From: Candidatus Marinacidobacterales bacterium
GTDB taxonomy: Bacteria > Acidobacteriota > Vicinamibacteria > Marinacidobacterales > SMYC01
Direction: 5' to 3'
DNA length: 64,000 bases
Assembly: GCA_965237955.1 (NCBI GenBank)
Contig: OZ250169.1
Coordinates: 864,001 to 928,000, forward strand
Shown here: in pieces, positions 2,187 to 56,810 of the stretch
Layout of the letters: the number at the start of each line of letters is the position of its first letter
Numbering within the stretch: the first letter of the stretch is position 1
Program-made: the position numbers and the translations under genes
The notes under the pieces: model-generated
The model's database searches: none
What the model was told of the DNA's origin: nothing
Seen by the model: only the letters and a program-made list of their open reading frames with translations

Positions 2187-3055
2187 CTAGCGCTCTGGAT
2201 TCGTGCCCGGGAAATGTCTCCGGGGGCATCAGGTTTTCGCCGGGTGCCGTCCCTGATTCTTAACGGATGGAGCCTACCATGGTCAGGTGAATCAGGCGGG
2301 TACTGTCACGTTTTCCACGGCCTGACGGCCACCCTGAATGAACGAAACGCGGTAGTCTCTGGAGGTGGCACCGGCTCAACACGACGCCTGAGGGAGCTCG
2401 GTTTTGACGTCACTGCCCCCAAACGCTACACCCTGAGTTTCTTATTAGTTGGCATCGAACGAGCCAGCCGACCCTGGCCCGGTCGCAAACACAGACACTA
2501 AGCTGCTGATTGATGGTCTATTTCAAAAGGGCCGAGTTTTGGCACAGGACGGGAGCGGGCGCTGACCGGGCCGTGCGGCAGCGGAAAAGAGGCCACCTGA
2601 GAGGCCCAGAATCGAGGCCAGTGCTACCGCGGCGTAGCGGGCCTAGCAAGTTCTGGTCCAGGTGCGGCCCGGTGTGCTCCGCAAAAAGTCGATCCAGCGT
2701 TGATTGCGCGGTTTATACCGGCGTTGTTGCACGGCCCGGAGCTCGCCCCGCAGTCGATTTGAGCCAGCCGTGCGCACCCCCGGTGGGCCTGTCGCTCGCC
2801 ACCCGCAGCCAAGGGTCGTAAGTCAGCCCTGCGGCGCGAAATACCCTCGATTCTGCGCGGATTCCAAGGGCGTCTAAGCTGCTGATTTGTGGTCTATTTC
2901 AAAGGAACTTACAAAGGTAGCTTGACACGCCCGTAAGCCATTGCGTTTAAGCGTCTTCCGAATTAAAGTCCGAGCACCCCACCTCTACATATAGTGGATG
3001 CGCGTTTTAGACCCTGACTACTACATATTGTGCCGACTAGCTCCGGCGTCGCGTG

Positions 3056-3328
3056 TCAAGCGCTTTTTTTCTTGCGGAGTTGCGGGAGATGGTCGGCGGC
3101 ACATTCCTCAATTTCGAAAGTTCGCACCAGTGAGCGCACTACTGCCCTCTCGATACTGGCCTTCCCGGACCTGTGCTTTATATGTTCACCTAAAGGTAGC
3201 TGGTGGAAAAGCTTACTGCCACACTTGATGATCCATTTGTGCCTGCCTTTTTTTTTGCTGTATCCAGGAAGGCATTCATCAAGCATCTTCCAGATCTTAG
3301 TGATTAGAATCTGTCCGTAGCCAGACAT
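3056..3328 (-). CDS. HicA-like small basic toxin candidate
   Basis: 90 aa, basic, KGRH...LPLGEH pattern resembling the HicA G-S-H...P-H motif; lies directly downstream of a HicB-like gene. Confidence 0.45.
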   Translation of the reverse strand: MSGYGQILITKIWKMLDECLPGYSKKKGRHKWIIKCGSKLFHQLPLGEHIKHRSGKASIERAVVRSLVRTFEIEECAADHLPQLRKKKSA

Positions 3329-3339
3329 GCGCGAAGATT

Positions 3340-3849
3340 TTACGCAGCCGTAGCGATATAATTATCGACTCGTTCAAAGGCTTGCCTGGGTTCTCTTTTA
3401 ACTGGCCTTATGGTTAAAGCGCTTTGCCAGAAATCGTCGGTATCGCGATTGAGTGGCACTGAAGGTGTTATCTCACCGCGCCGTACTGCTGCTCGGGCCG
3501 CAACCCAATCTCTCTCTTCTGGGACATTGACCTGCCTAACGAATCCGGTCACTCTGGCCTTGAAGTCTTCGAAATCGTCGGAAAGATATGACAGCTCCGA
3601 CAAAATCTGTGCCAGAGAATTCTTGAAAGCATAGTAGGATTCGTTCAATGTGTCTCCCTCATCGGCGATCCCACCCGGCTCAACTCCATTAAACGAATAC
3701 ACGACATGATCGTCCACTTCTTCCTTGATTGACATCGCCCTGCCTTTGATGTTGACCTCGGCTACGAAATCTGGACCGATCACGGTATCCTGAAACGTGT
3801 AAAACAGGGGTAATGTTTGGAGGGCATTCTCATCCATGGACAGTTCCAT
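3340..3849 (-). CDS. HicB-like antitoxin candidate
   Basis: GVEPGGIADEGDTLNESYYAFKNSL resembles the HicB PG..T.GDT.EEA motif; purine-rich RBS before ATG 3849. Confidence 0.45.
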   Translation of the reverse strand: MELSMDENALQTLPLFYTFQDTVIGPDFVAEVNIKGRAMSIKEEVDDHVVYSFNGVEPGGIADEGDTLNESYYAFKNSLAQILSELSYLSDDFEDFKARVTGFVRQVNVPEERDWVAARAAVRRGEITPSVPLNRDTDDFWQSALTIRPVKREPRQAFERVDNYIATAA

Positions 3850-3902
3850 TTCTTTTCCCTCTCTTTGGGGGAAGGGAGGATATTGCGCGCCAGGTGGACT
3901 TG

Positions 3903-4157
3903 TCAAGTATGGCTTTGGCTTGGGGCGCGGCTCCAGCGTGCTTTTGCCGCTTTCTTTGCGATGAAGGAGCGTTTGGTCGCAGAGAGCTTAGCGGCACGCG
4001 CTTTGCCTCCGGCGATAGCCCTCTCAACGACTTTCGGATCATCGGGAGCCTCCGGCGGCTCGTAAGTCTCTTCGCTTTCGCCTGCGGCGATCTTGCAGAT
4101 GTGAGCGGCGAGAGCGCCAGCTCCGACTGGACGCCATTGCCCCTGTGGTCCTCTCAT
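3903..4157 (-). CDS. Small basic protein of the type often found beside IS1595 transposases
   Basis: RGPQGQWRP...GGKARAAKLSATKRSFIAKKAAKARW signature. Confidence 0.6.
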   Translation of the reverse strand: MRGPQGQWRPVGAGALAAHICKIAAGESEETYEPPEAPDDPKVVERAIAGGKARAAKLSATKRSFIAKKAAKARWSRAPSQSHT

Positions 4158-4442
4158 CCCGTTCTTCTTGTGAAATTATGGGAATTTTCTTTTTTCGTTC
4201 TTGACAAACTCTTAAACTTAAGAGTTTCATTGTATGCCATTGTATACCATTCCATATCATTACAAGTCACATTGTGCACGTTTTCATTTCAAAGTGAGAC
4301 ACTGCCCGACCTTGCCGGCGCGATCCCCGACACCACAACATGTTGTAAAGTGCGAGGCCACAACATGTGGTGGTTTGAGGAGAAGCTGTCAAGCTACCTT
4401 TGTAAGTTCCATTTCAAAAGGGCCGAGTTTTGGCACAGGACG

Positions 4443-6810: not shown

Positions 6811-7040
6811 GCGTAGAGCGTCTTCTCATTGGCTGGGCAATTGGCTTGGAAAAACAGCCCGATCAACCCCGTCCTGTGCCAAAACTCGGCCCTCTTGAAA
6901 TAGACCACAAATCAGCAGCTTAGACGCCCTTGGAATCCGCCGACCCTTGGGCTGCGGGGCGAGCTGCGGGCAGTGAACTGCGCACCCGGAAGTCCCTCAT
7001 TAGGCTGGACTTTATCGAGCACAAGAGCGAACGTTCGGTG

Positions 7041-7472
7041 ATGCCGCAGGATACAGGGGTTGGCCGGAACGTCGTTTTGGACGGTTTGGACTTCGCCAGC
7101 TTACGGCGGGTCTGGGAGCAGACCTTTGGGGCTGCTCCTCCAAGCTCGCTCTCGCGTGTTTTCCTGCGCCGCGTTCTCTTGCACGAACGCCAGTGCCGGA
7201 CCCATGGCGGGCTTTCGGCCGCAACCCGGCGCGCTCTGGCCGCCATGGCGAACGAGACACCAAGCTCCGGCGCTCCCGCAGGGTCCGTTTCTGCCGGCAC
7301 CCATCTCGTCCGCGAGTGGAATGGCCGGACCTACCAGGTCGAGGTAATCGACAACGGCTATCGGTTCGATGGCAAAACCTATCCGTCCCTCACTACCATC
7401 GCAAAGCGAATCACCGGCACCCACTGGTCAGGACCACGCTTTTTCGGTCTGACGCCCAAGCGCAAGGCCTAA
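7041..7472 (+). CDS. DUF2924 domain protein
   Basis: GTHLVREWNGRTYQVEV...YPSLTTIAKRITGTHWSGPRFFGL; adjacent to a serine recombinase. Confidence 0.85.
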   Translation: MPQDTGVGRNVVLDGLDFASLRRVWEQTFGAAPPSSLSRVFLRRVLLHERQCRTHGGLSAATRRALAAMANETPSSGAPAGSVSAGTHLVREWNGRTYQVEVIDNGYRFDGKTYPSLTTIAKRITGTHWSGPRFFGLTPKRKA

Positions 7473-7473
7473 C

Positions 7474-9136
7474 ATGAAGAAGATCCGCTGTGCCATCTAT
7501 ACGCGAAAGAGTGCGGAAGAGGGTCTCGAACAGGAGTTCAACTCCCTCGATGCGCAGCGAGAAGCCTGCGCCGCGTATGTCGCGAGCCAGAAAGCGGAGG
7601 GCTGGGTGCTGCTGCCAACCGTCTACGAGGACGCGGGGCTCTCGGGAGGAACCCTGGAGCGCCCGGGCCTGCAGCGCTTGCTCGCCGACATCGACGCAGG
7701 TCTCGTCGACCAGATCGTGGTCTACAAGGTCGACCGGCTGACCCGTTCCCTCTCCGACTTTGCAAAGCTCGTCGAGCGGCTCGAGGCGGCCGGCGCGGTT
7801 TTCGTCTCGGTGACTCAGTCCTTCAACACCGCGACCAGCATGGGACGACTGACGCTGCATATGCTGCTGTCCTTCGCACAAATTCGAACGCGAGGTCACG
7901 GCCGAGCGGATCCGCGATAAGGTCGCTGCCTCCAAGCGCAAGGGACTATGGATGGGCGGCCGCGTACCGCTAGGCTATGAGAAGGACGGGCGCACGCTGC
8001 GCATCAACGAGGCTGAGGCCGAAACGGTCCGGACGCTCTATGCGCTGTACCGAAAGCACGAAACGCTCCGGCAGGTGAAGGCCGAGGCGGACCGTCTGAG
8101 ACTGCGTACCAAGCAACGCTTCGCCGCGGATGGAACCCGAACGGGCGGGCTGCCGTTCCGTCGCGGACACCTCCACTGCCTGCTGACCAATCCTCTCTAC
8201 GCCGGCCGCATCCGGCACCAGAGGCGTGTCTACGAGGGCCAGCATCCATCGATCATTGCTCCGGAGCTCTGGGACACGGTCCAAACGCAGCTGCAGGCAG
8301 GGGCTGCCAAACCAAGGAGACGCACGACGAAGGGCCGTGCAGCCCCCTCCCCACTGGCAGGCAAGCTCTTCGACGAGACCGGGGACCGGCTGACGCCGAG
8401 CCACACCAAAAAGAAAAACGGGCAACGGCTCCGCTACTACGTCTCCCGGCGCCTCATCCAGCACAGTGGCCAAAAGGACCTCTCCGGCTGGCGACTGCCC
8501 GCCCCGATGCTGGAACAGACCGTCGTGCATCTCATCCGACAGCATGTGGATGCCACGACCTTCTCGGCCTCGTTGATCCACACTCCGACGATGCAAGAGC
8601 TCGCCTCGGTGCGTCGCTTTTTAGACGGGCTGTGTTCCGGTAGCAATGATGATAGTGCCTCGGCAGCCCCCCTGCTCCGTCTTATCCGGCAGGTCGATAT
8701 CAGCCCCGGCTCTGTGTCCATCCTGCTCGACCGCAATGCGTTCGCTGATTGCCTGTCTATGGGACCTGACCGCATTCGCGAGGATGCACTCCGCATCCTC
8801 GCACCGTTCCGCTTGCGTCGACGCGGCGTCGAGACCAAGCTCGTTCTGGGCAACCCCACGAAATCCGTCGACCGCACACTCCTGCGCAATATCAGAAACG
8901 CCCTCTCCTGGCTCGACCGAATCAAAGCAGGCAAAACCTATGAGCAGATTGCCACCGAAAACGCCATCCCAACGGACCGCGTGCGCAAGGCAATCCGTTA
9001 TGCCTTCCTGGCTCCCGACATCGTCCGCGCCATTGTCGAAGGCCGCCAGCCCGTTGGGCTGACCTCGAGCTACCTCTTGCATCATCCGCTTCCCGACGAT
9101 TGGGAGAAACAGCGAGTGCTCGTCAAAACGCTGTGA
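7474..9136 (+). pseudogene. Large serine recombinase, frameshift near 7880
   Basis: CAIYTRKS, SGGTLERPGLQRLL, VYKVDRLTRS; the AQFERE motif is broken by an extra A; the second ORF has the recombinase and zinc-ribbon-like regions. Confidence 0.85.
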
Positions 9137-10296
9137 GCCTGCCAGCGCCCACTTCGTGAATGGGCTCGGTTAGCAGCAAGCTGCTCTCCGACACTGGCCT
9201 CCACCAATCAGACTCAAACTGGCCCAAATTCCCTGTCATGGTTTCCAGACTCGGATAGCTCCTTGTACTGGACCGTCTGCGGAGTCATCTTCGTTTCCTC
9301 CGTAAAACTCCGCTGGATGAATTCGAGGTTTGGCTAATTCGAATTCCGCTATTCGCCTTCTCCTCAGGCGCGATCTAGGCGTTAAGCGTCTTCTCATTGT
9401 CTGCACGATTAAGCGCAAAAACGTCCCGATAAGGCCCCAAAATCGCCCCAAACTGCACGTTAATGGCCTGTTGTGCTCTGTTTCTGATCGTTTCCAGCCA
9501 CGAACCGGAAGCTCCACTCAAGCCTCCCGACTGCGATAGCCGGAAAGATGTTCCCGTCGACGAACATTCGCTGATGAGACGTAAAGCCTTTTGCGACAAT
9601 GAGTAACGGTCGGAGCCGCCTCCGGAGGGTTTACGACACGGCCCTCTTTCAAGCGTCCAGGAGGTTGAGATTGCCGTACAAGAAATTTGATTGAAGCAAA
9701 TTCGATTCCGGCTCGGAACGAGCACCCGTCGATGAGATGTGCGGGGACCAGCACGTGGTGGCTTCCGTTAAGTCACTGTAAAAAAACAGGATAGAACGCT
9801 GTGGGCATCAGGGCTTCTCTGAGTTTTCGCTACATTGCCCCAACCACGCGCACGGCCAAAAGTTCGATCCTGACTCCCAAAATTGCCAAAATACCTTTTG
9901 CCGAGACCGGATGGCTCGAGACTGCACCATCCGCCATCCAGTCTGCCCAATTGTGGCACTGCAGAGACGGGTGAGATTTTCCGCGCGCTTGGCGGGGTTT
10001 TGCAGGATCAGGTGGCACTAGAGATGCGCTAGAAAGGCTGAACGGGCCTCATTTTCGGTTTTCGTCTCTAATCGCGATTTTCGAGTGCCACGTTTGCGCC
10101 AAAGGGGGGGAGCGGGCCGCTGACAGGGCCGTGCGGCGGCGGAAAAGAGGCCACCCGAGAGGCCCAGAATCGAGGCCCGGGCTACCGCGGCGTATCGGGC
10201 TAGCACGTTCTGGTCCAGGTGCGGCCCAGGCCTGGATCCAGACTAAGCTGCTGATTTATGGCCTATTTCAAAAGGGCCGAGTTTTGGCACAGGACG

Positions 10297-12140: not shown

Positions 12141-12616
12141 CGTCCTGTGCCAAAACTCGGCCCTTTTGAAATAGGCCATAAATCAGCAACTTAGTGTCTG
12201 TGTTTGCGACCGGGCCAAGGGCCGTGGGCTTTACAATCGTCTTGGGCGGGCGGGTCGTCACCATGCAGATGACCACCTAGTCGAGAGCGAATATCGAAGC
12301 GTGTGCCTGAAGCTGTTTTCACGCTACGCCGAGCGGGCCCACCAAGGGGCTACCGTCGCCGGCGACAATCTACGCGGCACGGCAGTAGTAGTTGAGAATG
12401 CCCCCAAGTCGCTCTCGCGACACGATGGGGCCAGCGTCATTCGCGCTTGCCGGCAGAGGTGTGAGGAGCTCGTTGCCGAGACCTTGGTGGTTCCGTTCTG
12501 TGTGATAGTGCACTACGTATTCGGTTACCGCTGTGCGCAGGTGTCGCTCACTGAGAGGTACGAAGCGGTCGAGACACTCTCGACGTATGGAGAGAACGAA
12601 TCTTTCCGCATATGCG
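12141..12616 (-). mobile_element. 3' fragment plus right end of the A-type integrase-core IS
   Basis: Reverse complement of ~30672-31148; truncated by an IS5 end at ~12618. Confidence 0.9.
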
Positions 12617-12969
12617 TGGCGTTGTTGCACCGCTCTGGCTGAGAGCAAAATCCGCCTATGGTGGTGGCGCGCCGCGCTTGCTCCTGAGCCAGCTTGAGGA
12701 GTCCTCCGAGAGTAGGAGGAGGGGGAGCGATCATTTCAACGGCCCTCCCGCGATGTGCCAGCGACCACACGGACGGGTTCTTTCTGAGCGTTTCCCGCAC
12801 AGCCCCCCATCCGGCTTCCCCATATCGGTTGACCAATATGATCTGCACCCCGTCCTGTGCCAAAACTCGGATCTTTCGAAATAGACCATAAATCAGCAGC
12901 TTAGCAAGTTCGGTGCGCGCGGATGAATAAATAGAAGGCACACCCAAAATCGGGTGCTTCCGCCATCAA

Positions 12970-15679: not shown

Positions 15680-16019
15680 TCGGAAAGCATAGCGCAGGGC
15701 GGTGTGCTCCGTAAAAAGTCGATCCAGCGTTGATTGCGCGGTTTAGAGCTGCCATGCTCGGCTGCTTCGTGCTGGTCGACCGGACGACGCCACCGGCGTC
15801 TTAGGGACGTGGAGAGGCTCGCTCTTGCGACTGTTTTCGAATATCCGGCCTATTCTCCTGGACGCCGTCGCGTTCGCTCGCAACGTATGCTGCTCGCGCA
15901 GCGCCCTCGCCGCAGAGAACTTTTCCGGAAGACGATTGCGTGCGAGCACGACTGCAAACGTGGCACAGCGGTCATTACCAAGGGGCTGAGGGATCGTCGT
16001 TCCAACACGCGCGGGTAGG

Positions 16020-16340: not shown

Positions 16341-16369
16341 TCTCCTCCAATGTCGTTATGCCATCGAAC

Positions 16370-16463
16370 TGTGCTCCGCAAAAATTCGATCCGGCGTTGA
16401 TTGCGTGGGTTAGACCTACCATAGTCGGCTGCTTCTGGCCGGTTTTCTTTTTTGAGGATCACA
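16370..16463. mobile_element. ~94-bp MITE ('E'), TGT...ACA ends; inverted second copy at 53099-53193
   Basis: TGTGCTCCGCAAAAA...TTTTTGAGGATCACA; solo ends also at ~2673, 15703, 18737. Confidence 0.75.
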
Positions 16464-16875
16464 CCCGGCAAACCGGAGACTAATCAAGTTCGGTGCGCGC
16501 GGATGAATAAATAGAAGGCACAGGTACCATGGTTTGTCTTCTTCCTTAAGGTCAATGGGGTTTGTCCTTTCCACTGCAGCCCGCACATCGAGCTCCGTTT
16601 CCCAAGCCAGCCACCCGAGGAGCCCAACTGCCAAGGACAGTTCTTGAAACGGTTCGCCGTCACACTCTTTGAGAGCTCGCGGCCCCAACGATGAACTACC
16701 CCACGTGAGCGCCAAGCCGCCAACTTCGAAGAGCCGCCTCTCATGATCGAGATCTACGAGCTTCAGGTACTTCGAGCGCCACTCGATGCGCTGCTCGGCG
16801 ATCCGAAGGGTGTGAACTACGCTGAGTACCGCCGCAAGCTGCACCACAGCGCGCCGGGCCATCCCAGTGCGTACC

Positions 16876-18670: not shown

Positions 18671-19157
18671 CGCGCCGTCAGACGAGGTAGCAAGCTACTT
18701 TGTGCGTGCTGCTGATGTCACGAAGCTCCGGCAGGCTGTGCTTCGCAAAAACTCGATTCGTCGTTGATTCCGCAGTTTAGACCTGCCAGGATTGGCCGTT
18801 TCGCGGCGAATGGATGACGTGATCCGGCGTCATTGTAAACGTGGAGGTCGTCTGGTCAAAATACTCGAACGCCCAGTGGGTCAGCAGGTTGCACCTTTCC
18901 AAGGGCTGCCTGAATCCGGCATCGCGGTCGGATACGTGTTCCTTCCGGGTGCGCAGTTCGTTGCCTGCAGCTCGCCCCGCAGCCGATTTGAGCCAGCCGT
19001 GCGCACCCCCGGTAGGCCTGTCGCCCGCCACCCGCAGCCCAGGAGTCGGAAGCCAACTCTGCGACGAGAAATACCCTGGATTCTGCGCGGATTCCAAGGG
19101 CGTCTAAGCTGCTGATTTCCAGTCTATTTCAAAAGGGCCGAGTTTTGGCACAGGACG

Positions 19158-28423: not shown

Positions 28424-29508
28424 GGCGTTGTTGCACCGCTCTGGCTGAGAGCGGACTCCACCTATGGCGGTGGTCGAGGTATGTTCGACCATGACGTATC
28501 CCAAGCGCAGCCAGTACAAGCACGCGAAGCAGAAGAAGTACCACGTTCGCAACTGGCCGGAATACAACGAAGGGCTGCGCCGCCGAGGCGATTTGACGGT
28601 CTGGTTTGACGAGGAGGCAATCGCGAATTGGAAGGCCGACAAAACCGGCAAGCCGGGCGGTCAACAGGTCTATTCAGACATGGCGATTGAAACGGGCCTG
28701 ATTGTCCGGATGGTGTACAAACTTGCCTACCGCCAAACCGAAGGCTTCTTGCACTCGATCGTCTCGCTTGTCGGGCTGTGCATCGAGATCCCGGACTACT
28801 CGACGTTTTGTCGCCGGTCGAGGCTGCTCCGCAAGAAGCTGCGGATTCCGAAAGCCGCAAGCAATCAACCAATCCACCTGATGATCGATAGCACGGGCTT
28901 GAGGATTCATGTTGGAACTGCCCGCAAACCGCCAAAGCGGCGCGCATGGCGCAAGTTGCACATCGCCGTCGATCGCAAGACTGGCAACATTGTTGCGTCG
29001 GAACTGACGGCGTCACGAGCTCGCGACGCAACGCGAGTCCCCGCTTTGCTAAGACAGATTCAAGCACCTCTAGCGTCGGTGGCGGCGGACAGTGCATACG
29101 ACAAGCAAGCGGTCTACGAAGCCATCGAAGCGCACGGCCCTGGACGAAGGACGCGCGTGGTGATTCCGCCGCAACGAAACGCGACGCTCAGTCGGAATTC
29201 GAACACCGCCATGCAGGAGCGCGATCGCCATATTCGTGCCATCGAAAGACACGGCCGACGAGAATGGTACAAGCTCTCAGGCTGCACCGAGCGAAGCATG
29301 GTGGAGAACGCGGTCTATCGCTACAAGGCGATCATCGGTCCCGAGATGCGGGCTCGAACGTTGGCGAGGCAGCGAGTTGAACACCGAATTGGATGCGAGA
29401 TCCTCAACAAGATGACCGCGCTCGGGATGCCTGATACATACTGCGCCGGGTGAAACTGCGACCGGCGCAGAGGGCTCAGCGATTTGCTCCGGGCCGTGCA
29501 ACAACGCC
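28424..29508 (+). mobile_element. IS5 type A, complete diverged copy
   Basis: Both IRs GGCGTTGTTGCAC; 329-aa ORF with IDSTGL, ADSAYD, RS.VE motifs; no TSD. Confidence 0.92.
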
Positions 29509-29720
29509 GACCTTTGGGGCAGCTCCGCCAAGCTCGCTCTCGCGTATCTTCATGCGCCGCGTTCTCTTGCACGAACGCCAGTGCCGGACCCATGGCGGGC
29601 TTTCGGCCGCAACCCGGCGCGCTCTGGCTGCCATGGCGAACGAGACACCAAGCAACGCCGCTCCCGCAGGGTCCGTTTCTGCCGGCACCCATCTCGTCCG
29701 CGAGTGGAATGGCCGGACCT

Positions 29721-31148
29721 CGTCCTGTGCCAAAACTCGGCCCTTTTGAAATAGGCCATAAATCAGCAGCTTAGTGTCTGTGTTTGCGCCGGGGCTAAGG
29801 GCCGTAGGCTTTACAATCGTCTGGCCCGAGGGTGTTATCTTCAGCTCCATGATGACGTACCACGTGCAATTCCTACTGCTCGTTCTAGCTGGCTGGGTCA
29901 ACCGCCAGCAGCAGGATGTGATCGACTACCAGCAAGAGGAGAACCGTGTGCTCCGAGCCGGGCTTCGGGGCAAGCGTCTCAAGCTCTCTGACGACGACCG
30001 TCGTAGGCTCGCGGTCAAGGCCCAGGCTTTGGGCCGCGAGGCGCTGGCCCAGATTGCGTCCGTTGCCACACCCGCTACGCTTCTGCGTTGGTACCGCTGC
30101 CTCATCGCAGCCAAGTACGATGGCAGCAAGAACCGGAGTCCAGGCCGACCTCCGACGGCGAAGGACATCCGTGAGCTCATTGTGCGCGTGGCGCGGGAGA
30201 ACCCGACGTGGGGATATACGCGCCTGCGAGGCGCACTCAAGAACCTAGGACATGAACTCGGACGCAACACTATCAAGAGGATCCTCGCCGAGCACGGTAT
30301 CGCTCCTGCGCCGGAGCGGGGCAGGAGCATGTCGTGGAGCACCTTCATCAAGGCTCATTGGGGCGCCATCGCTGCGACAGACCTGTTCACCGTCGAGGTT
30401 GTGAACCCGTTCGGGCTCGTCCGCTACCATGTCCTGTTTGTCATCGATATCGCCACTCGCTGCGTGTGCATCGGTGGGATAACGTCGGACCCCAACGGGG
30501 AGTGGATGAAGCAGGTGGCAAGAAATCTCACTGACATGTGGGATGGTTTCCTCCTTGGCAAGCGATACCTCATCCACGACCGGGACCCACTATTCACCGA
30601 GGCGGTACGTGGGCTGTTGAGAGATTCAGGCGTGAAGCCCCTTCGCCTTCCCGCTAATAGTCCGAATCTGAACGCATATGCGGAAAGATTCGTTCTCTCC
30701 ATACGTCGAGAGTGTCTCGACCGCTTCGTACCTCTCAGTGAGCGACACCTGCGCACAGCGGTAACCGAATACGTAGTGCACTATCACACAGAACGGAACC
30801 ACCAAGGTCTCGGCAACGAGCTCCTCACACCTCTGCCGGCAAGCGCGAATGACGCTGGCCCCATCGTGTCGCGAGAGCGACTTGGGGGCATTCTCAACTA
30901 CTACTGCCGTGACGCGTAGATGGTCGCCGGCGACGGTAGCCCCTCGGCGGGCTCGACCGGCGTAGCGTGGAAACAGCTTCAGGAACACGCTTCGATATCC
31001 GCTCTCGACTAGGAGGTCATCTGCATGGTGACGACCCGCCCGCCCAAGACGATTGTAAAGCCCACGGCCCTTGGCCCGGTCGCAAACACAGACACTAAGT
31101 TGCTGATTTATGGCCTATTTCAAAAGGGCCGAGTTTTGGCACAGGACG
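29721..31148 (+). mobile_element. Intact integrase-core (rve, IS481/ISNCY-like) IS with ~100-bp TIRs; transposase 29849-30919
   Basis: DDE motifs ATDLF / HDRD / YAERF; 29721-29823 is an imperfect inverted repeat of ~31046-31148. Confidence 0.88.
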
Positions 31149-31363: not shown

Positions 31364-31684
31364 CGTCCCTGTGCCAAAACTCGGCCCTTTTGAAATAGAC
31401 CATAAATCAGCAGCTCAGTGTCTGTATTTGCGACCGGACCAAGGGCCGTAGGCTTTACAATCGTCTGGCCCGAGGGTGTTATCTTCAGGTCCATGATGAC
31501 GTACCACGTGCAATTCCTACTGCTCGTTCTAGCTGGCTGGGTCAACCGCCAGCAGCAGGATGTGATCGACTACCAGCAAGAGGAGAACCGTGTGCTCCGA
31601 GCCGGGCTTCGGGGCAAGCGTCTCAGTCTCTCGGACGACGACCGGCGCAGGCTCGCGGTCAAGGCCCAGGCTTTGGGCCGCGAG
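31364..31684 (+). mobile_element. A-type IS 5' fragment
   Basis: Left TIR plus [10 protein letters not shown]...; interrupted by IS256. Confidence 0.9.
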
Positions 31685-32647: not shown

Positions 32648-33027
32648 CGTCCTGTGCCAAAACTCGGCCCTTTCGAAATAGACCATAAATCAGCAGCTTA
32701 GCGACTGGGCCAAAGGCCCTTAGGCTCTACAGTTACCCAAAACTCGCGGTCGACGTTCGAGAGCCGCGGCCGTTTCACCGAACGGCGGAGGACGGCGAGC
32801 TGCTGCCGAAGAGCGACATTGTCGAGAGCCAGCTCGCGACGAGCCTTGAAGGCGGAGATGAGAGCGCGAACAAACGACGAAATCAAGCAGGCATGGTGCC
32901 GGCAGACCGGAGACTAATCAAGTTTGGGGCGCCCGGATGAATAAATAGAAGGCACAGGCCCTTGGCCCAGTCGCTAAGCTGCTGATTTATGGTCTATTTC
33001 GAAAGGGCCGAGTTTTGGCACAGGACG

Positions 33028-33447
33028 GGAGACGGACATTGAGCATATCGTCGCACGCTCCGAGGCGCACGACAGTGGGCTCTGTGCGGCGGATGAGGCA
33101 ACTCGACGACGCTTTGCAACAGATCTGCTGAATCTGACGCTGGCAAGTCCCGGCGTGAACCGGAACCAGAAGCGTGCTCGCGACGCCGCGGAGTGGCTAC
33201 CGGACCGGAACCGGTGCTGGTTTGCGGACCGTAGCCTTGCGGTCCGCCGAAAGTACGGTCTGACGATAGACCAACGGGAGGCAGACGCCCTTGAGGGCGT
33301 ATTGTCTGGCTGCCAGTCGACCGACTTGGTCGTGTTGGCCCACGGCGTCTCACCAGTCGCTCAGGACATCACCTCGACGGCCGCCGATGTGCATGAGATG
33401 CTTGTTCAGTGGGACGACAACGACGACGGCCGTATCACGTGTGCCGA
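33028..33447 (+). pseudogene. DUF1524/HNH-type nuclease fragment with EF-hand-like tail
   Basis: DIEHIVARSEAHDSG...FATDLLNLTLASPGVNRNQK..RDAAEWLP; WDDNDDGRITC; bounded by two A-ends. Confidence 0.7.
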
Positions 33448-33516
33448 CAGACACTAAGCTGCTGATTTATGGGGCTATTTCAAAAGGGCCGAGTTTTGGC
33501 ACAGGACGGGAACGCC

Positions 33517-36358: not shown

Positions 36359-36737
36359 ACGCTTACAGAGTATGCCATGCCTCGTTGTGATCCGCATAAA
36401 AGAAGATCGCCTATCGATGGGCCCTTGGTCCGGTCGCAAACACAGGTACTGAGCTGCTGATTTATGGTCTATTTCAAAAGCGCCGAGTTTTGGCACAGGA
36501 CGGGGACCAATTGGCGATATCCCACCGACGGAATTCGAACATTGGTATGATTGCCGGCAACGGTCTGGTCTCGCTGAGGCCGGACTCAACTAAAACACTC
36601 TCCGGAAAACACGGGCGGTTCAGTTTTGATTTAATAAGCTTCTCTTGGGTCGTCATGGGTCTCTTTCCTCCTTATGTCGTTTGGCCCTGCTAGAGACCGT
36701 CAAGGCAGGCACTGCAAGTACTGAATAGTCAGGAGAG

Positions 36738-38874
36738 ATGATGCAGCTCACGAAGGTGTACATCCGTTTTTTCAAGTCCTTCAACTACGACTATGAGCGG
36801 AAGTTCGCTCGGACGTCAACGCCAGATCCGTGGGAATATATCGATGGTGCATGGTACCCCTTCGTTCGGATCGATTTGGAACCATCAATCACCACAATCG
36901 TCGGTGCGAACGAATCTGGGAAGAGCCACCTGCTTGACGCCATCGAGAGGCTGATCACCGGATCCGGAATTGACCGGAGCGAGTTTTGTCGCTACTCACA
37001 CTTCTTCTCTGTCCAACAGGGCGAGCGTCGTTCACCTGATTTTGGAGGCGAATTCGAACTCGTCAACGAAACGGACGTCGAGCTTGCGAATACGCACCTG
37101 CAGATTGATGCACCGGTGGGCGAGCGGTTCCACTTGTTTCGCCTAAACGGAGGTTCTCCGGTCATTTACCGTTCCGGGCAGGATGCGCCCATCAAGGTTA
37201 AGGCGAAGCAGGCTAAGCTGAGCCTCGTACTGCCGGCTGTGTTCAGGCTTGATGCTCACGTGCCCCTTCCAGCCAATATCCCGCTCTGTGAACTTGCGCC
37301 GAATGCGAACCGCCCGCACGGGACCAGGCGGTCAAGGCGTTCAGTCTTTGAGGGCATCCTCGGTAAGGCTTGGTCAAATGCCGACGAGTTCACCAAAGCA
37401 GCCCCGAAGCTCTACGGTCTATTCTCTGGTACGCCAACCGATGATGGCGACTGCGGCGGCGTCGAACAGCAGTACGAACTTGGCCGATCCCTGCTCTTTA
37501 GAGTCGCGAAAATTGATCCAACGACTTTTGAGGATTTATCCGAGGCGATTGCCGACGAACGGGAAGGGTACGTCAACGGCGTCCTCCAGAAGATCAACGA
37601 CGCTCTGGCCAGTCATCTGAATTTCCAGCGCTGGTGGGCACAAGACCGTGAGTTCCGGCTGATGGTGTCTCCACGCGAACATGAACTCGTGTTTACTATC
37701 CATGACTGCACACGGACAGACTACTCGTTCGCGGAGCGCAGTAATGGGCTGAAGTACTTCCTGAGCTACCACGTCCAGCTGCTTGCTCACCAGCCGCCGG
37801 TAACGGGACAGCCGGAGATCTTGCTCATGGATGAACCAGACGCCTATTTGTCGAGTCAAGGGCAGCAGGACCTCCTTCGCATCCTGGAGGCGTTCGCCCT
37901 TCCAGATGACCACAGTCGACGAGACCAAGTTGTCTACGTGACGCATTCGCCCTTCCTCATCAACCGTAATGCCGGCGACCGCATCCGTGTCCTCGATAAG
38001 GGCGTCACTGACGAAGGCACTCGGGTGGTGAAGGATGTCGCGCGAAACCACTACGAGCCGCTCCGATCGTCACTGGGCGCGTTTGTCGGTGAAACATCTT
38101 TCATCGGTGGGTCGAATCTCTTTGTTGAGGGCTTGGCCGACCAAGTTCTGCTCGCCGGCGTGAGCACGCACTTGCTGGCCGTAGGCGCGCCGAAGATGGA
38201 CACACTGGACTTGAATACTACGACGATCGTGCCCGCGGGATCGGCCTCCAGCGTCCCGTATCTGGTCTACCTCGCACGAGGTCGCGATGTGGTTCGTCCC
38301 GCGTGCGTCGTACTGCTTGACAGCGACAGGCCAGGCGACGATGCCGTCAAAGTACTGGCACGGGGTGGCCCACGTCACCGAGAGCTCCTGCCTTCTAATT
38401 TTGTGGTGCAGATGGGCACTTGGGCAGCAACGAAACCAACCATCGTAGCTAATGTCGTTGTGCGGGAGCTTGAGGATCTGGTTCCGGTTTCCGTCGCCGT
38501 TGCCGCCGCACGGAACTACGCTGTGAAAGTGGCGGATGTTTCGCATGAAGCAGCGGACAGGCTTGGCGAGGATCATGTCACGCAGATACGGAAAGAGTCG
38601 GGCTCGCTGTTCGATGCCCTCGCCTTGGCATTTACGGATTGCTTGGGACAAGATGCCCACATAGAGAAGGTCGGATTCGCCAAAGAGGTCATTGCGGTGC
38701 TGGCGGCGTCGCGCGGCGCCGCACCGTCGCCAGCTATTGAGGAGCTTCAGCTAAAATTTGGCCAGCTTCTAAGTCACCTCGCGAAACTCCTACGACGGGC
38801 CAACCAGCGCGAAGAAGAGCGACGCTTGAACAACAGGTTGAATCGAACGATCGCCGCATTTCTCGACGACTACC
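36738..38874 (+). pseudogene. OLD-family ABC ATPase/TOPRIM protein, 3'-truncated by IS5
   Basis: GANESGKS, ILLMDEPD, VTHSPF, FVEGLAD, LLDSD. Confidence 0.8.
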
Positions 38875-39959
38875 GGCGTTGTTGCACGGCCCGGAGCAAA
38901 TCGCTGACCTCCCTGTGCCGGTTGCAGAGTCACCCGGCGCAGTACGTATCGGGCATCCCGAGCGCAGCCATCTTGTTGAGTATCTCGCACCCAATTCGGT
39001 GTTCAACTCGTTGCCTCGCCAACGTTCGAGCCCGCATCTCCGGCCCGATGATCGCCTTGTAACGATAGACCGCGTTCTCCGCCATGCTTCGCTTGGTGTA
39101 GCCTGAGAGCTTGTACCATTCACGTCGGCCGTGTCTTTCGATTGCACGAATATGGCGATCGCGCTCCTGCATGGCGGTGTTCGAATTCTGACTGAGCGTC
39201 GCGTTTCGTTGCGGCGGAATCACCACGCGCGTCCTTCGTCCAGGACTGTGCGCTTCGATGGCTTCGTAGACCGCTTCCTTGTCGTATGCACTGTCCGCCG
39301 CCACCGACACTAGAGGTGCTTGAATCTGTGTTAGCAAAGCGGGGACTCGGGTTGCGTCGCGAGCGCGTGACGCCGTCAGTTCGGACGCAACAATGTTCCC
39401 TGTCTCGCGATCAACGGCGATGTGCAACTTGCGCCATGCGCGCTGCTTTGGCGGTTTGCGGGCGTTTCCAACATGAATCCTCAAGCCCGTGCTATCGATC
39501 ATCAGGTGGATGGGTTGAGTGCTCGCGGCTTTCGGAATCCGCAGCTTCTTGCGGAGCAACCTCGAGCGCCGACACAACGTCGAGTAGTCCGGGATCTCGA
39601 TACCGAGCCCGAGAAGCGAGGCGATCGAGTGCAAGAAGCCTTCGGTTTGTCGGTAGGCGAGCTTGTACACCATCCGGACAACCAGGCCCGTTTCAATCGC
39701 CATGTCTGAATAGACCCGTTGACCGCCAGGCTTACCGGTCTTGTCGGCCTTCCAGTTCGCGATTGCCTCCTCGTCAAACCAGACTGTCAAATCGCCCCGG
39801 CGGCGCAGCCCTTCGTTGTATTCCGCCCAGTTGCGAACGTGGTACTTCTTCTGCTTCGCGTGCTTGTACTGGCAGCGCTTGGGATACTTCATGCTCGAAC
39901 ATACCTCGGCCACCACCATAGGCGGATTTCGCTCTCAGCCAGAGCGGTGCAACAACGCC
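38875..39959 (-). mobile_element. IS5 type A, complete
   Basis: Both IRs; 329-aa ORF; no TSD. Confidence 0.92.
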
Positions 39960-40080
39960 GCCCAGGGGTCGGAAGCCAGCCCTGCGGTGCGAAATACCCT
40001 GGATTCTGCGCGGATTCCAAGGACGTCTAAGCTGCTGATTTGCGGTCTATTTCAAAAGGGCCGAGTTTTGGCACAGGACG

Positions 40081-40310
40081 GGGAACGGGTCAGCCGGTCG
40101 ACCTTGTAGACCACGATCTGCTCGACGAGACCGGCATCGATGTCGGCGAGCAAGCGCTGTAGGCCCGGGCGCTCCAGGGTTCCTCCCGAGAGCCCCGCGT
40201 CCTCGTAGACGGTTGGCAGCAGCACCCAGCCCTCCGCTTTCTGGCTCGCGACATACGCGGCGCAGGCTTCTCGCTGCGCATCGAGGGAGTTGAACTCCTG
40301 TTCGAGACCC
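40081..40310 (-). pseudogene. Internal fragment of the same large serine recombinase
   Basis: Matches ~7520-7750; bounded by an A-end and a C-end. Confidence 0.9.
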
Positions 40311-40778: not shown

Positions 40779-41133
40779 CCCCAAAGGTTTGCTCCCAGAC
40801 CCGCCGTAAGCTGGCGAAGTCCAAACCGTCCAAAACGACGTTCCGGCCAATCCCTGTATCCTGCGGCATCACCGAACGTTCGCTCTTGTGCTCGATAAAG
40901 TCCAGTCTAATGAAGGACTTCCGGGTGCGAAGTTCACTGCCCGCAGCTCGCCCCGCAGCCGATTTGAGCCAGCCGTGCGCACCCCCGGTGGGCCTGTCGC
41001 TCGCCACCCGCAGCCCAGGGGTCGGAAGCCAGCCCTGCGGCGCGAAATACCCTCGATTCTGCGCGGATTCCAAGAGCGTCTAAGCTGCTGATTTGTGGTC
41101 TATTTCAAAAGGGCCGAGTTTTGGCACAGGACG

Positions 41134-51482: not shown

Positions 51483-51916
51483 GTCGACCGCTTCGTACCT
51501 CTCAGTGAGCGACACCTGCGCACAGCGGTAACCGAATACGTAGTGCACTATCACACAGAACGGAACCACCAAGGTCTCGGCAACGAGCTCCTCACACCTC
51601 TGCCGGCAAGCGCGAATGACGCTGGCCCCATCGTGTCGCGAGAGCGACTTGGGGGCATTCTCAACTACTACTGCCGTGCCGCGTAGATGGTCGCCGGCGA
51701 CGGTAGCCCCTCGGCGGGCTCGACCGGCGTAGCGTGGAAACAGCTTCAGGAACACGCTTCGATATTCGCTCTCGAATAGGTGGTCATCTGCATAGTGACG
51801 ACCCGCCCGCCCAAGACGATTGTAAAGCCCACGGCCCTTGGCCCGGTCGCAAACACAGACACTAAAGTTGCTGATTTATGGCCTATTTCAAAAGGGCCGA
51901 GTTTTGGCACAGGACG
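51483..51916 (+). mobile_element. A-type IS 3' fragment and right TIR
   Basis: Matches ~30717-31148. Confidence 0.9.
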
Positions 51917-52414: not shown

Positions 52415-53266
52415 ATCGACACCAAGCGCATCCGTCGTCATCTCGTCTCACAACCCGTGCGGATGAATAAATAGAAGGCACGGAGGTCCTCGCCGGCGAC
52501 CGCCAGTTCATCGCGCGCCCTCGAGAAGCGGAAGTGCCCGCCCCCTGCTGACGTGGCCGACGCGGTCGCCAAGTTGCTCGACGCGCTGAAGACCCCGGTC
52601 AAAGTCGTTACCGCATTCGCTCTCGACATGGTGACGACCCGTCCGCCCAAGACAATTGCAGAGCCCACGGCCCTTGGCCCAGTCGCAAACACAGACACTA
52701 AGCTGTTGATTTTATCAGCTATTTCAAAAGGGCTGAGTTTTGGCACACGACGGGCTGCTACGTTTCTACCATCGGGAAGCCGCATGAGTATTTTGACCTC
52801 ACGAGCTTGGCGATGAGCGATTGAGTTGACGAGCGCCGCCGGTATCCCTTTGGACCCCGTCCTGTGCCAAAACTCAGCCCTTTTGAAATAGACCACAAAT
52901 CAGCAGCTTAGACGCCCTTGGAATCCGCGCAGAATCGAGGGTATTTCGCGCCGCAGGGCTGGCTTCCGACCCCTGGGCTGCGGGTGGCGAGCGACAGGCC
53001 CACCGGCCGACCGGAGACTAATCAAGTTCGGTGCCCGCGGATGAATAAATAGAAGGCACAGGAGTAGCTGTTGCCGGCGGCTTTCGCCAAGTGCCGGTTG
53101 TGATCCGCAAAAAAGAAGATCGACCAGAAGCACCCGACCATAAGCAGGTCTAAAACGCGCAATCAACGCTGGATCGACTTTTTGCGGAGCACAGCTCTCT
53201 GTTGGGTGTCTTGGTCATTTCTCCGCCGTTTCCGGCATGCGGAATCAATCATCGCCGCGTCGGCCA

Positions 53267-53955: not shown

Positions 53956-54075
53956 GGCTTTCTCCAGAACTTAATGCTATCAAAATGTTATCACAACACA
54001 GCGGCAGGTACAAAAACCAGCCGCCCGCGTCTTCAATTGCTGGTATGGGATCCCGGTAGGGTCGAGGGCTGGCAC

Positions 54076-55794
54076 GGTGCTCCTGCCATTTCAGTGGATC
54101 CTCTCGAGGGTGAGACCGCCACAGTTTAGGTAGACGAGACTGATGAGAGCTTCGGCAGAGTGGAGTCCAAAGCTGCGGTGGCTCAGCAGCCGGATTTTGT
54201 TGTTCATTCCTTCGAGTCGGCCGTTGCTGAGTCTCCACGTGACCCACGCGATGACGCCATCGAAGTGGCTGCGGATCATCTTCGCCGCGCGTTTGACGGG
54301 CTCTATCCTCGAGCTCATAGCGCGCCGCAGCCATCCTCGGAGAAACTTCTTGGCCCATGTCTCGGTTTTGTAGGTGTAGAGGTCCATGAAGTCGTCGCGC
54401 AGAAGCATGGCGCGGTAGAGGCGACGATTAGCTCGCACCTGCTCGCGGAGCACCCGTTTGTCTTTCGCGCTGCGGTTGTGTTTGGCCTTGAGAAGGGGAA
54501 ACTTGGTGTTCTTGAGGTTGCGCCGGGCAGTCCCTTTGAGCTCGCGCACCAGCTCGCGCCGGGTCTTATCCACGGCCTCGTTCAGATGCTTGACGATGTG
54601 GAAGCGGTCAAAGATCACCCGTGCCTGAGGAGCCTTTTTGCCGACGACAGTTATGTACGGCTCCCACATGTCCATGCTGACCGCTTCGAGCTCCGCGGCT
54701 CTTTGTGGTCCGAGCTTGCGGAAAAACCGCAGCAGCGTCTTGGCCTTGCGCTCCTTTCCCGCCCAGACGACCCGGCCGCTGAGATGGTCTATTACCACTG
54801 TTAAGTACTTGTGGCGTTTGCGGTAGCTGATCTCGTCCATCCCAATCACCCGCAATCCATCGAGCTCGCGCCGCTCATCCCGCTGCTCGGCAACCACTCG
54901 CTGGATGATCCGTCGCACCGAACGCCACGTCACTCGGAAATAGTTCGCTACGGCGCTGACGTCCGTCCTCTGTGCCAGCCACGCTACCTCTTGTTCGAAG
55001 CTTTTGGTAAAGCGGCTTCCCTTGTCGGCCCAAGGCACCTTTTCTCTGACCACTCCACACCGCCGACATACCACTCGTCGGATCGAGTAGCGAAGATAGG
55101 TCCGGACTCCGAACAGGTCCAAGTGCCGCCAGTAGCGATTGTAGCGATCTTTGTTCTTGCGGACCTTTCGTCCGCAAATCCCGCACAGAGGCTTCCTCCT
55201 CCGTGGTACTACATCCACCACCACTCTGGCTTTGTCCGCCTGGAAGTGGAAACCTCGGACCCACAGGCCTTGCAATCCGATGAGCTTGTTGACTAACGTA
55301 GTAACGCGCATCGCGGGAACGCTCTTTTCTCTTTCGGAAAAAAAGATTCTAGCGTTCTCGCCGATGCGCATCTACACATGGCTTACCCTCTCAACCCACG
55401 GGCCTCACCAAATGCCACTGCCCCTCAGCGGGAGACGAGGCTGTGGGAAACGCCCCCACGGTTCTGGTCGTTCAGACCTTGCTCACGACTGAGTTCTCTT
55501 CGAAGCCTGGAAGGGCGTTTTCCATAGCCTCCACTAATCGAGCCCCCCCTTCCTTATTCCATATGAATTAATCTTTCTTGTATATATATCAGGTGGGGCC
55601 TGTGGGCGCTCGTGGGAAACGCGAAGCGTTTTCCAAGCGATTGTGGAAAACGCCGCTCCACGTTTGTACGTGCTCACAACCTTTCCCTAAACGCCTCTCT
55701 CGCCCGGAGTTTCCGGCGTTTTCCACAATCGCGGCAGCGTCCATAGGCCATGCCCTCCAACACAAATCAGATCCCCCGAAACGACAGGAGAACC
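54076..55794 (-). mobile_element. Second ISL3-family IS; transposase 55311-54091
   Basis: CxxC pairs, GMDEIS, SMDMW, FDRFH, SNGRLEGMN; imperfect IRs GGT(G/T)CTCCTG(C/T)C. Confidence 0.85.
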
Positions 55795-55976
55795 CTATTT
55801 AATTCATCCGCGGGCACCAGCTCGCAACGAGCCTTGAAGGCAGAGATGAGCGCGGGAACCAACGACGAAATCATGCAGGCATAGTGCTGGCAGACCGGAG
55901 ACTAATCAAGTTCGGGGCGCGCGCATGAATAAATAGAAGGCACAACCAGATTCCATGGAAGAGAAGCGCGATTGGA

Positions 55977-56013
55977 AAGAGCCCGAGACCCTTCGTAGGT
56001 CTCGGGCTTTTCG
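55977..56013 (-). terminator. Terminator hairpin after the RRM gene
   Basis: AGCCCGAGACC-CTTCGTA-GGTCTCGGGCT. Confidence 0.7.
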
Positions 56014-56048
56014 CCAGCAAAAATCTGGTCCGAGTCGAGGAGTGGGGC

Positions 56049-56339
56049 TTACCAGCGCCGCCCGCCGCCACCGCGACCGCCACCGCCGCCTTCGGTCCGG
56101 GGTTTGGCTTCGTTGACGTTCAATGTACGACCACCGAGATCAGTTCCATTGACGCCACGGATGGCCGCTTGCGCGGCCGAGCTGTCCGACATCTCAACGA
56201 AAGCGAAACCACGCGGGCGACCGGTGTCGCGATCGGTGATCACGTTGACGCTACTCACCTCGCCGTAAGTCCCGAAGACGTCTCTGAGCTGTTGCTCGGT
56301 GACGTCGAAGGAACAATTGCCTACATAAATCTTACCCAT
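56049..56339 (-). CDS. RRM RNA-binding protein with Gly-rich tail
   Basis: RNP2 IYVGN, RNP1 RGFAFVEM. Confidence 0.92.
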   Translation of the reverse strand: MGKIYVGNCSFDVTEQQLRDVFGTYGEVSSVNVITDRDTGRPRGFAFVEMSDSSAAQAAIRGVNGTDLGGRTLNVNEAKPRTEGGGGGRGGGGRRW

Positions 56340-56810
56340 GAAATGAACTCCTGAACGGAAAGGGCCTAAGCGAGGGCTGACGGAGGTGTGGTGGAAGTCA
56401 CCAGCAAAAAAAACTACGAAGAGCCGTCGGATAGCTGACGGCGCCATACTGGACTATTCCCGGGTGCGTGTCAAACCCGGCATGTGCCGTGACTATCCAC
56501 GGGCTGTGCTGGTTCAAGTCGCTCCGACGCTCTACCTCGAGGACGACCGAGGACTTCAGATGGGTGTCCCTTCCATAAACTCGAGCTGCATGAGATTGGC
56601 GAACTCCTCGTGTCCGAAAACGCGAACGGAGCCGAAACCTCGAATCCTAGAGGTGTTCTCGAAACGCAATAACGTGCTGGAGAAAGATCTCGCTCCTCCC
56701 GCGCAGCCCCGCTTTGCGGGCCGCCAATCCAAGTGTCGTCGACCTCGACCGCTGGGCGTCCTGTGCCAAAACTCGGCCCTTTTGAAATAGACCACAAATC
56801 AGCAGCTTAG

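Follow-up and report, generated by a model that had tools for sequence, protein, structure and literature searches.

How does one stretch of a bacterial chromosome come to hold twenty copies of the end of a single insertion sequence (IS), with only one intact copy of the element among them? The stretch is a 64,000-nucleotide window of the 8.13-Mb single contig of a Candidatus Marinacidobacterales bacterium (G000:C1:864001-928000, G000 being our label for this genome), and the element is a 1,428-bp IS with a DDE-type transposase. An earlier reading made from the letters of the window (the sequence-only reading) had proposed that a hyperactive end, acting by one-ended or intramolecular transposition, repeatedly re-targeted this locus and accumulated foreign DNA. 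We find that the phenomenon is real and broader than the window, and that the element, a DDE insertion sequence, probably acts through its ends singly.

We searched for ends with a 25-nt end core, allowing at most four mismatches. In the window the core matches exactly 20 times, from 2498 to 56810, at the places where a 54-bp end had been described, and all but one retain 54 bp or more of the IS end (19 of 20; the exception, at 4442, retains 32 bp); read backwards, the core has no match in the 8.13 Mb. The single intact parent (Table 1) is likewise as described. All 20 window tips start CGT, as expected from the constant ...GACG tip that had been noted, with the qualification that the copy at 31364 carries one extra C; genome-wide, 475 of 491 tips start CGT, and intact targets put the junction at CGT. 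GG abuts the tip in 15 of the 20 window ends, and at 40081 it is target-derived, as had been argued, the 37 intact copies of the resolvase gene reading ...GGAGA-GGGAAC. The claim that tips cut genes in mid-frame is backed by Pfam or an intact copy for the SRAP, HEPN, DUF1524, resolvase, IS256 and IS110 genes; it is weaker for the DUF262 gene (10296), which scores below the Pfam cut-off, and for the VPS10/BNR gene (41133), which is below or near it. A sister rve_3 transposase gene (12141) and a DUF2924 gene (29721) can be added to the list. Genome-wide, 140 of 238 intact targets lie inside an open reading frame (ORF) of at least 150 amino acids, and some tips cut non-coding DNA.

The IS is bounded by terminal inverted repeats of about 100 bp that start CGTCCTGTGCCAAAACTC. 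In an alignment that used 75 of the 120 listed homologue matches, D178, D244 and E279 of the transposase are invariant in all 76 aligned sequences. The best NCBIfam match is NF033577 (IS481), with 99.9 bits against a cut-off of 224; NF033516 (IS3) scores 80.5 bits against a cut-off of 160. The predicted fold resembles retroviral integrases, IstA and TnsB, as generic DDE enzymes including HIV integrase (E about 1e-7), while a sequence search of the PDB returned nothing below E=0.07. A promoter and terminator scan of the IS returned nothing.

Extending the search to the whole genome, we observed 491 ends forming 442 distinct junctions, alongside 25 near-complete copies of the IS, 20 of them with an open frame. 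Only 46 of the 491 ends belong to full-length copies, which makes about nine ends outside such copies for each one inside. All 491 lie in 16 clusters that add up to 1.79 Mb, or 22% of the chromosome; in sliding 64-kb windows, at least 20 ends occur in 48 of 1009 and none in 665 of 1009. Mapped in this way, as the sequence-only reading had suggested, the ends are clustered genome-wide and do not combine into ordinary IS insertions with target-site duplications (TSDs). Its idea that this one locus is repeatedly re-targeted is not supported as it stands: the locus is not specially re-targeted, given 491 ends in 16 clusters and similar zones in 8 related genomes, and the same counts rule out a locus-specific hot spot. 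Scarcity of targets was also rejected as the cause of the clustering, motif density being 4.28 per kb inside clusters and 3.91 outside. Homologues of ISL3, IS256, IS21 and IS5 are spread over the whole chromosome. Sorted by inner sequence, 179 ends are of the IS type and 80 of type B, in which base 54 of the end adjoins the leader of a DUF2924/serine-recombinase module; the others include several mini-elements and 79 singletons. Nearly every copy has an outer flank of its own, 61 type-B ends having 59 different flanks. Among 30 relatives, the IS is present at 97-99% identity in 8, from two families, with weak matches in 5 more; of seven genomes counted, the five that carry it hold 29 to 476 ends, and in one of them, G025, 27 of 29 ends lie in one zone.

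The target was deduced from sites that remain uncut. For 238 of the 491 ends the flank is also found uncut elsewhere (beyond the tip at 33508, for example, the next 2,141 bp match an uncut stretch at G000:7,879,195 with 99.95% identity), and 194 clear, distinct intact sites give the logo R-S-N^G-G-R-T-C (-3 A60/G29, -2 C64/G26, -1 G40/T30, +1 G79, +2 G89/C10, +3 G62/A27, +4 T64, +5 C48). The site has no mirror at any overlap from -12 to +15: the mirror of position +2 needs C at 0.89, and the best value is 0.64. The best mirror distance is 0.26, against 0.067 (maximum 0.111) for a null symmetrised at overlap +1. Insertion of both ends necessarily leaves a target with mirror symmetry, so the asymmetry argues against a two-ended reaction. 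The same logo was obtained from 29 new targets in a 400-kb sample of genome G015, and its flank preference recurs in 33 flanks of homologues from other lineages. Target positions -3 to -1 resemble the tip ACG (match 0.60, 0.64 and 0.40; ACG at 36 of 194 sites), a resemblance that may reflect a pocket normally holding a recipient end, or a short branch migration.

Other accounts of the flanks were considered and rejected. The intact targets rule out GG as a part of the IS, and a constant 2-bp duplication of CG is ruled out by the presence of CG at only 60 of 238 intact sites. NC flanks are not the reciprocal of NG flanks, the upstream logo being common to both. For insertion with a short target deletion there is no excess of collinear flanks within 3 kb, and for targets resembling subterminal inverted repeats the sole signal between -45 and +45, beyond -4 to +6, is one weak position (-36).

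Partner junctions are missing as well. No pair of ends with matching flanks had been noted in the window, and we find none there or genome-wide. There are 121 inward pairs in G000, and not one of the 97 testable pairs rebuilds a single target (0/17 for full copies and 0/16 for mini-elements of 300-330 bp); a repeat of at least 3 bp flanks none of 23 full-size pairs. Target rebuilding was equally absent in the relatives (0/19 among 26 full copies) and in the G015 sample (0/13 among 21). Reciprocal TSD-like pairs (n=4-14) stay within the shuffled maximum genome-wide, no enrichment was found of chimeras between the left half of a target and an old flank, and tip-to-tip circle junctions with a spacer of up to 12 bp are absent from the chromosome, although free circles would not show in an assembly. 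The smallest gaps between facing tips are 25 and 27 bp.

An ordinary two-ended replicative IS of the IS26/IS903 type might also lack matching flanks, had deletions, inversions and recombination between copies erased them. Loss of flanking repeats through intramolecular transposition is established (PMC7986276), and two IS903-like elements of G000 behave in just this way (0/45 and 0/43 rebuilds). We used these as controls: one is the window element at 28424-29509, the other a family with TGCCTTGGTGCAC ends. As they too lack paired flanks, unmatched flanks prove little, and the discriminating traits are instead target asymmetry and the missing reciprocal partners. Both controls have a symmetric 9-bp target. 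The second shows 7 reciprocal 9-bp pairs against 0.73 expected, with 164 of its 220 ends in full copies; the first shows 3 reciprocal pairs and a mirror distance of 0.18, as high as its symmetrised null reaches (mean 0.111, maximum 0.179). A two-ended reaction leaves a mirror-symmetric target and reciprocal pairs, as it does in the controls, and the IS has neither; the asymmetric logo already largely refutes erasure of paired flanks, which we consider quite unlikely. The IS903-like elements themselves make a strong case of replicative intramolecular transposition, with the signature described for IS26 (PMC7986276).

Duplications bounded by a single end were also observed. Among 46 close same-orientation neighbours, three show a one-end tandem duplication that starts at a target behind the tip and stops at the tip: 421 bp at 98.8% identity (the clearest, G000:553,474-554,314), with shorter ones of 115 bp (93%) and 268 bp (90.5%, less exact). 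Such a product points to single-end transfer or a one-end circle, and a two-ended reaction would not yield it. The 5' part of the transposase is oriented 6+/31- in three plus-oriented zones (p=4e-5), compared with 20+/22- for the IS903-like control. Of the two processes named in the sequence-only reading, one-ended joining of unrelated DNA therefore fits, through the asymmetric target, the absence of a reciprocal junction and the one-end duplications, whereas ordinary two-ended intramolecular transposition fits poorly.

From these patterns in the sequence, we consider it fairly probable that the IS acts by strand transfer from a single end to a direction-specific target, resolved by replication, and not by two-ended insertion. 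In this scheme, the 3'-OH at the ...GACG tip would attack one target strand on the same or the sister chromosome; replication would then fix the end-target junction and the other half of the target would be lost, which would make each junction a half-crossover. If the target lay ahead of the tip, adjacent DNA would be deleted; if it lay behind, the outcome would be a one-end circle or a tandem duplication, and the duplication could arise from a circle reinserted by recombination or from transfer to the sister chromatid. Reaching a distant target would take a further crossover at a common repeat, or a second end. Half-crossovers among core genes would be lethal, which may confine the ends to dispensable, repeat-rich DNA. 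Given that 80 ends are fused to the recombinase module leader, the end would trim cargo for the recombinase to move. The reaction would resemble the asymmetric first step of IS30, IS911 and ISCth4, but would be aimed at a genomic motif and not at the partner end. Asymmetric single-end transfer resolved by replication is established for IS30, IS911 and IS256 (PMC9333248, PMC7780238 and PMC7986276).

Both ends might instead be transferred in one complex, each to its own RSN^GGRTC, so that the IS would come to lie at a deletion or duplication joint and the solo ends would be later debris. Two-site transfer explains why full copies have a motif-matching but unrelated flank on each side, and how the IS has spread across genera at 98-99% identity. 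It also has a precedent, the nearest direct one that we found, in a TSD-less IS481 copy at the joint of a 60-kb duplication in Pseudomonas fluorescens SBW25 (PMC11708052). However, it gives no one-end tandem duplications; the flanks of 34 pairs are collinear within 3 kb no more often than shuffled ones (4 vs 3.99), families of solo ends continually gain new flanks, and the chemistry at each end remains a single-end joint. We judge two-site transfer unlikely.

The sequence-only reading had a hyperactive end accumulate foreign DNA. Its influx is better assigned to the DUF2924/serine-recombinase element, whose attachment (att) sites mark the large zones, than to the end by itself. Other copies of the module carry the Resolvase and Recombinase domains in one ORF, in place of the two in the window, and at least 19 of 45 recombinase ORFs reach 550 amino acids from stop to stop. 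The att site lies about 0.8-0.9 kb downstream of the recombinase and has the core TCCGCCA. At G000:126,912, where the largest zone starts, tRNA-Ser(tga) is followed at its 3' end by an att right arm, forming attL. G000 contains 37 P' arms, and in the largest zone 21 of 21 are on one strand. These 21 co-oriented arms extend over 0.75 Mb (G000:126,912-873,945) behind tRNA-Ser(tga), an unusually large tandem array.

Relatives that lack the element (4 of 4) have two tRNA-Ser genes spaced by 1.4-5 kb. In G000 the spacing is 1.9 Mb and the genes are inverted; attL stands at one of them, and an attR-like arm lies 5.6 kb from the other, an arrangement suggesting that inversions later divided a single array. 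Since the attL and attR-like arms are on opposite strands at this distance, a large inversion that broke within the array (G000:1.15-2.08 Mb) is indicated. The 9 of 31 genomes with the att motif are the very ones that carry the near-identical IS, an agreement in which kinship and assembly quality are confounded.

A 32-kb island (2,369,651-2,401,606) lies between attL and attR arms after a conserved dam-like gene, and in 6 of 7 loci of relatives the neighbour of that gene is the gene found beyond attR, as at an empty site. The island holds 9 ends and a 7,910-bp block that reproduces, at 99.86% identity, a Type I restriction-modification operon from 305 kb; the block starts at the att core and stops exactly at a type-B tip. 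The only two outlying ends of G025 are in a stretch of 15 kb that tRNA-Asp and an attR-like arm delimit; G025 belongs to another family and shares 9.5 kb at 98% identity with G000, which bears indirectly on transfer between cells. Capture of circles with a long common cargo after each att was rejected: sequences after P' agree over no more than 600 bp in 35 of the 37 arms, the exception being one pair that runs for 7.9 kb. It is likely that the dispensable mosaic DNA is supplied by the DUF2924/large-serine-recombinase element, integrating at tRNA 3' ends and piling up in arrays.

The junction between end and flank could itself be a short recombination site (GAC-NGG-GTC) that a recombinase swaps reciprocally with look-alike sites. 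The target is a near-palindrome whose positions -3 to -1 resemble the tip ACG, a serine recombinase gene co-occurs in most clusters, and 24 of 40 common junctions occur with different inner sequences. Yet reciprocal products are not enriched at the junction position, the serine recombinase has an att core of its own, and the same end motif and flank logo stand beside distant transposase homologues, in genomes that may also carry the module. A swapping site is very unlikely to explain the junctions.

The mosaic might also be an artefact of assembly, with repeats misjoined or the island variants of many cells strung together. The zones are 30-66% repetitive, the contamination estimate is 6.2%, the zone of G025 spans a contig break, and assembly could have inflated the size of the zones. 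We compared other IS families in the same assembly. Three families of 1.4-1.7 kb, which we take from their end motifs to be of ISL3 and IS256 type, keep TSDs of 7-11 bp in the core (29/32, 23/27 and 12/12) and also in the zones (2/3, 3/3 and 5/5), the count being limited to 40 copies per family and to copies whose two boundaries both fall at the modal position. That other ISs retain TSDs, in the zones too, makes mis-assembly unlikely, and misjoining cannot create a sharp sequence preference at the junction. Junctions also recur across genomes, 18 of 154 and 23 of 101 from relatives being found in G000, and in contigs from other studies the match to the window breaks off at 10297, 19158 and 29720, beside the tips at 10296, 19157 and 29721. 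Contigs of seven other runs, one labelled as a sponge metagenome, carry pieces of the window, with a best share of 0.53; none of those listed spans the stretch, and their summed depth is no measure of copy number. Taken together, an artefact is highly improbable.

Several observations weigh against single-end transfer coupled to the recombinase element, and we stress them here. Exact one-end duplications are few (3/46 in G000 and 0/13 in the G015 sample), the direct orientation of flank and intact copy is only modestly favoured (18/25, p=0.04), and the B zones show a weak bias of orientation (8+/14-). Six distinct opposite-strand pairs occur at a 3-bp gap; those listed are at multi-copy sites, and they include matches on both strands of a palindromic multi-copy site. 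The existence of 25 near-complete copies, 20 with open frames, implies that both ends somehow stay together. The IS903-like controls rebuild no target either (0/38 in zones plus 0/7 in the core for one, 0/43 for the other), and paired flanks are thus lost by other routes too in this lineage. With regard to the recombinase element, the orientation of att arms is mixed in the relatives; four small clusters have no att arm but do have module hits or a type-B end (one of them the type-B end only), and two tiny clusters, with 4 ends in all, have neither module, att arm nor type-B end. Finally, every line of evidence consists of end products in assemblies.

DDE insertion sequences are defined by two ends joined to one target. 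We compared the IS with several known systems. IS3 elements have an OrfA/OrfB frameshift, TG..CA ends and TSDs of 3-4 bp, unlike the IS, which has a single ORF, CGT tips and no TSD. IS91 and ISCR elements use an HUH (Y2) enzyme and unlike ends, oriIS and terIS, and their one-ended events carry adjacent DNA. The IS shares with them the absence of a TSD, a short direction-specific target, one-ended events and gene mosaics, but its fold is the RNase H-like DDE fold and its near-identical inverted ends make the same junction. ISEcp1 uses a surrogate second end and leaves 5-bp TSDs; like ISEcp1/IS1380, the IS would mobilise adjacent DNA of variable length from one true end, but without TSD and without a second junction. 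Integrative elements targeted to tRNA genes accrete in tandem, and the recombinase element resembles them in its att core at a tRNA 3' end, its attL and attR, its P-P' hybrid junctions and its large serine recombinase; it differs in the scale reached in G000 (37 P' arms) and in the IS end fused to the module leader in 80 copies. IS481 termini read 5'-TGT...ACA. The tips of the IS read CGT-NN-TGT, none of its copies has a TSD, its target is asymmetric and its score is far below the family cut-off, but it shares with IS481 a single-ORF transposase with helix-turn-helix (HTH) and rve-type DDE domains, and a TSD-less IS481 copy is on record (PMC11708052). The four resident IS481 copies of SBW25, by contrast, show a putative 4-bp repeat.

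The copy-out/paste-in elements IS3, IS30 and IS256 resemble our reading in their chemistry: a single strand is attacked by one 3'-OH, the product is resolved through replication or branch migration, and the first step of IS30 is termed one-ended site-specific transposition (PMC9333248, PMC7780238 and PMC7986276). Their target, however, is the partner end, a few bases outside the tip, and symmetric integration with a TSD follows, whereas the IS targets a short genomic motif, and neither abutted ends nor symmetric products were found in the assembly. As with IS26 (IS6) and IS903, clusters of ends without paired TSDs organise accessory regions, and circles with adjacent DNA are described for those elements (PMC7986276); but theirs is a two-ended reaction with a symmetric 8-9-bp target and reciprocal partners, and the IS lacks both.

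The transposase family is large, with at least 7,993 proteins at E<=1e-20, annotated merely as 'integrase core domain' or 'transposase'; genes titled 'integrase core domain' number thousands in Acidobacteriota, Myxococcota, Gemmatimonadota and actinomycetes. The closest relatives of the transposase carry the title Ca. Marinacidobacterales. Homologues 59-85% identical occur in Myxococcota, Gemmatimonadota, Deltaproteobacteria and Bryobacterales and have the common end CGT-NN-NGT-N-C-(C/G)-AAA, and no TSD was seen by eye at the complete copies shown from these other lineages. The exact end was not found in 300 other genomes of the phylum. A Streptomyces plasmid homologue has no TSD; four intact left-flank alleles occur in records without a match to the right flank, which is weak evidence, since the two inspected alleles diverge not only from the query, at or just before the tip, but also from one another. 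A Pfam check for split genes around distant homologues found no family common to both sides. The literature searched contains no description of the family, but most subscription papers and ISfinder were outside the search and an entry may exist.

If our reading is correct, a single-end family would be an engine of deletion and duplication rather than a jumping gene, a DDE counterpart of IS91/ISCR. It would explain why tools based on TSDs fail to delimit such elements, and how 22% of this chromosome turned into a mosaic with cut and copied genes for restriction-modification, HEPN and surface proteins. It is likely that the end and a tRNA-targeting integrase together build very large accessory-gene mosaics. 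We put forward more tentatively, as a possibility that we rate somewhat short of even, that this widespread, unclassified DDE family has lost symmetric integration and is solely a half-crossover enzyme, and that in these marine Acidobacteria its end and the tRNA-targeting recombinase form a two-part shuffling device, the end trimming cargo and the recombinase integrating it anew, whose mosaics of 0.1-1.8 Mb are traded between host families.

Table 1. Features of the window (positions in the 64,000-nucleotide stretch)
Feature	Position	Strand	Remarks
Solo end, tip 2551, flank GG	2498..2551	-	cuts recombinase module tail
Solo end, 32 bp kept, tip 4442, flank GG	4411..4442	-	cuts SRAP gene
Type-B end, tip 6870, flank GG	6870..6923	+	fused at base 54 to DUF2924/recombinase leader
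DUF2924 (6930-7472) and large serine recombinase in two ORFs (resolvase 7474-7920, recombinase 7952-9136)	6930..9136	+	
attP-like site of recombinase element	9900..10010	+	core TCCGCCA (9930-9936) = tRNA-Ser(tga) 3' end
Solo end, tip 10296, flank GG	10243..10296	-	cuts GmrSD_N (DUF262) gene, weak match
Right-hand IS fragment, 477 bp, tip 12141, flank GG	12141..12617	+	cuts sister rve_3 transposase gene
Solo end, tip 12851, flank GG	12851..12904	+	
Type-B end, tip 19157, flank GG	19104..19157	-	cuts HEPN gene
IS903-like IS5-family element, control, outside the system	28424..29509	+	symmetric 9-bp target, no paired TSDs
Complete IS, 1,428 bp	29721..31148	+	left tip cuts DUF2924 gene; right tip meets unrelated multi-copy sequence; no TSD
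Transposase, 356 amino acids, single ORF	29849..30919	+	N-terminal helix, HTH_32, HTH_21, rve_3
Left-hand IS fragment, 321 bp, tip with one extra C	31364..31684	+	cuts 5' part of IS110 gene
Inward end pair, 380 bp	32648..33027	.	left tip (flank AC) cuts IS256; right tip (GG) cuts GmrSD_C (DUF1524)
Solo end, tip 33508, flank GG	33447..33508	-	
Solo end, tip 36502, flank GG	36420..36502	-	
Type-B end, tip 40080	40027..40080	-	cuts resolvase gene at GGAGA^GGGAAC (37 intact copies)
Type-B end, tip 41133, flank GG	41080..41133	-	cuts VPS10/BNR gene
Right-hand IS fragment, 433 bp, tip 51916, flank GG	51484..51916	-	
Solo end, 126 bp, tip 52752, flank GG	52627..52752	-	
Type-B end, tip 52858, flank GG	52858..52911	+	
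Type-B end, tip 56757, flank CC	56757..56810	+	

A second, unexplained breakpoint lies within the end itself: 106 ends stop matching the IS exactly after ...CAGCAGCTTAG (base 54) and continue into several different sequences, as at window positions 6923, 10243 and 12904. On the scale of the chromosome, the 2.6 Mb from 4.7 to 7.3 Mb of G000 are free of ends and include a GC-skew switch at about 6.0 Mb, the likely terminus. A tRNA-Glu-like gene is present twice within a 3.8-kb duplicate (99.97% identity) in different zones (G000:421,050 and 2,884,722), and the zone of G025 contains a second tRNA-Ser(gct) gene (6,247,858-6,247,952).

Other genes in the window include a Calx-beta repeat autotransporter of 1,300 amino acids with six repeats of about 114 residues (24226-28128) and, among cargo genes, a terminase-like gene (33517-34956) and an AAA_21 ATPase gene (36738-39062). 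We also observed three sister end types in G000, mostly solo, that start TGTGCCTT (109 copies), TGTGCTCC (80) and CGTCGTGTCC (167), with 99, 77 and 141 copies, respectively, inside the zones; examples in the window are at 16370-16524 and 15703-15776. ORFs beside the TGTGCCTT and TGTGCTCC types are 33-34% identical to the IS transposase, and the sister end types probably behave like the end of the 1,428-bp IS.

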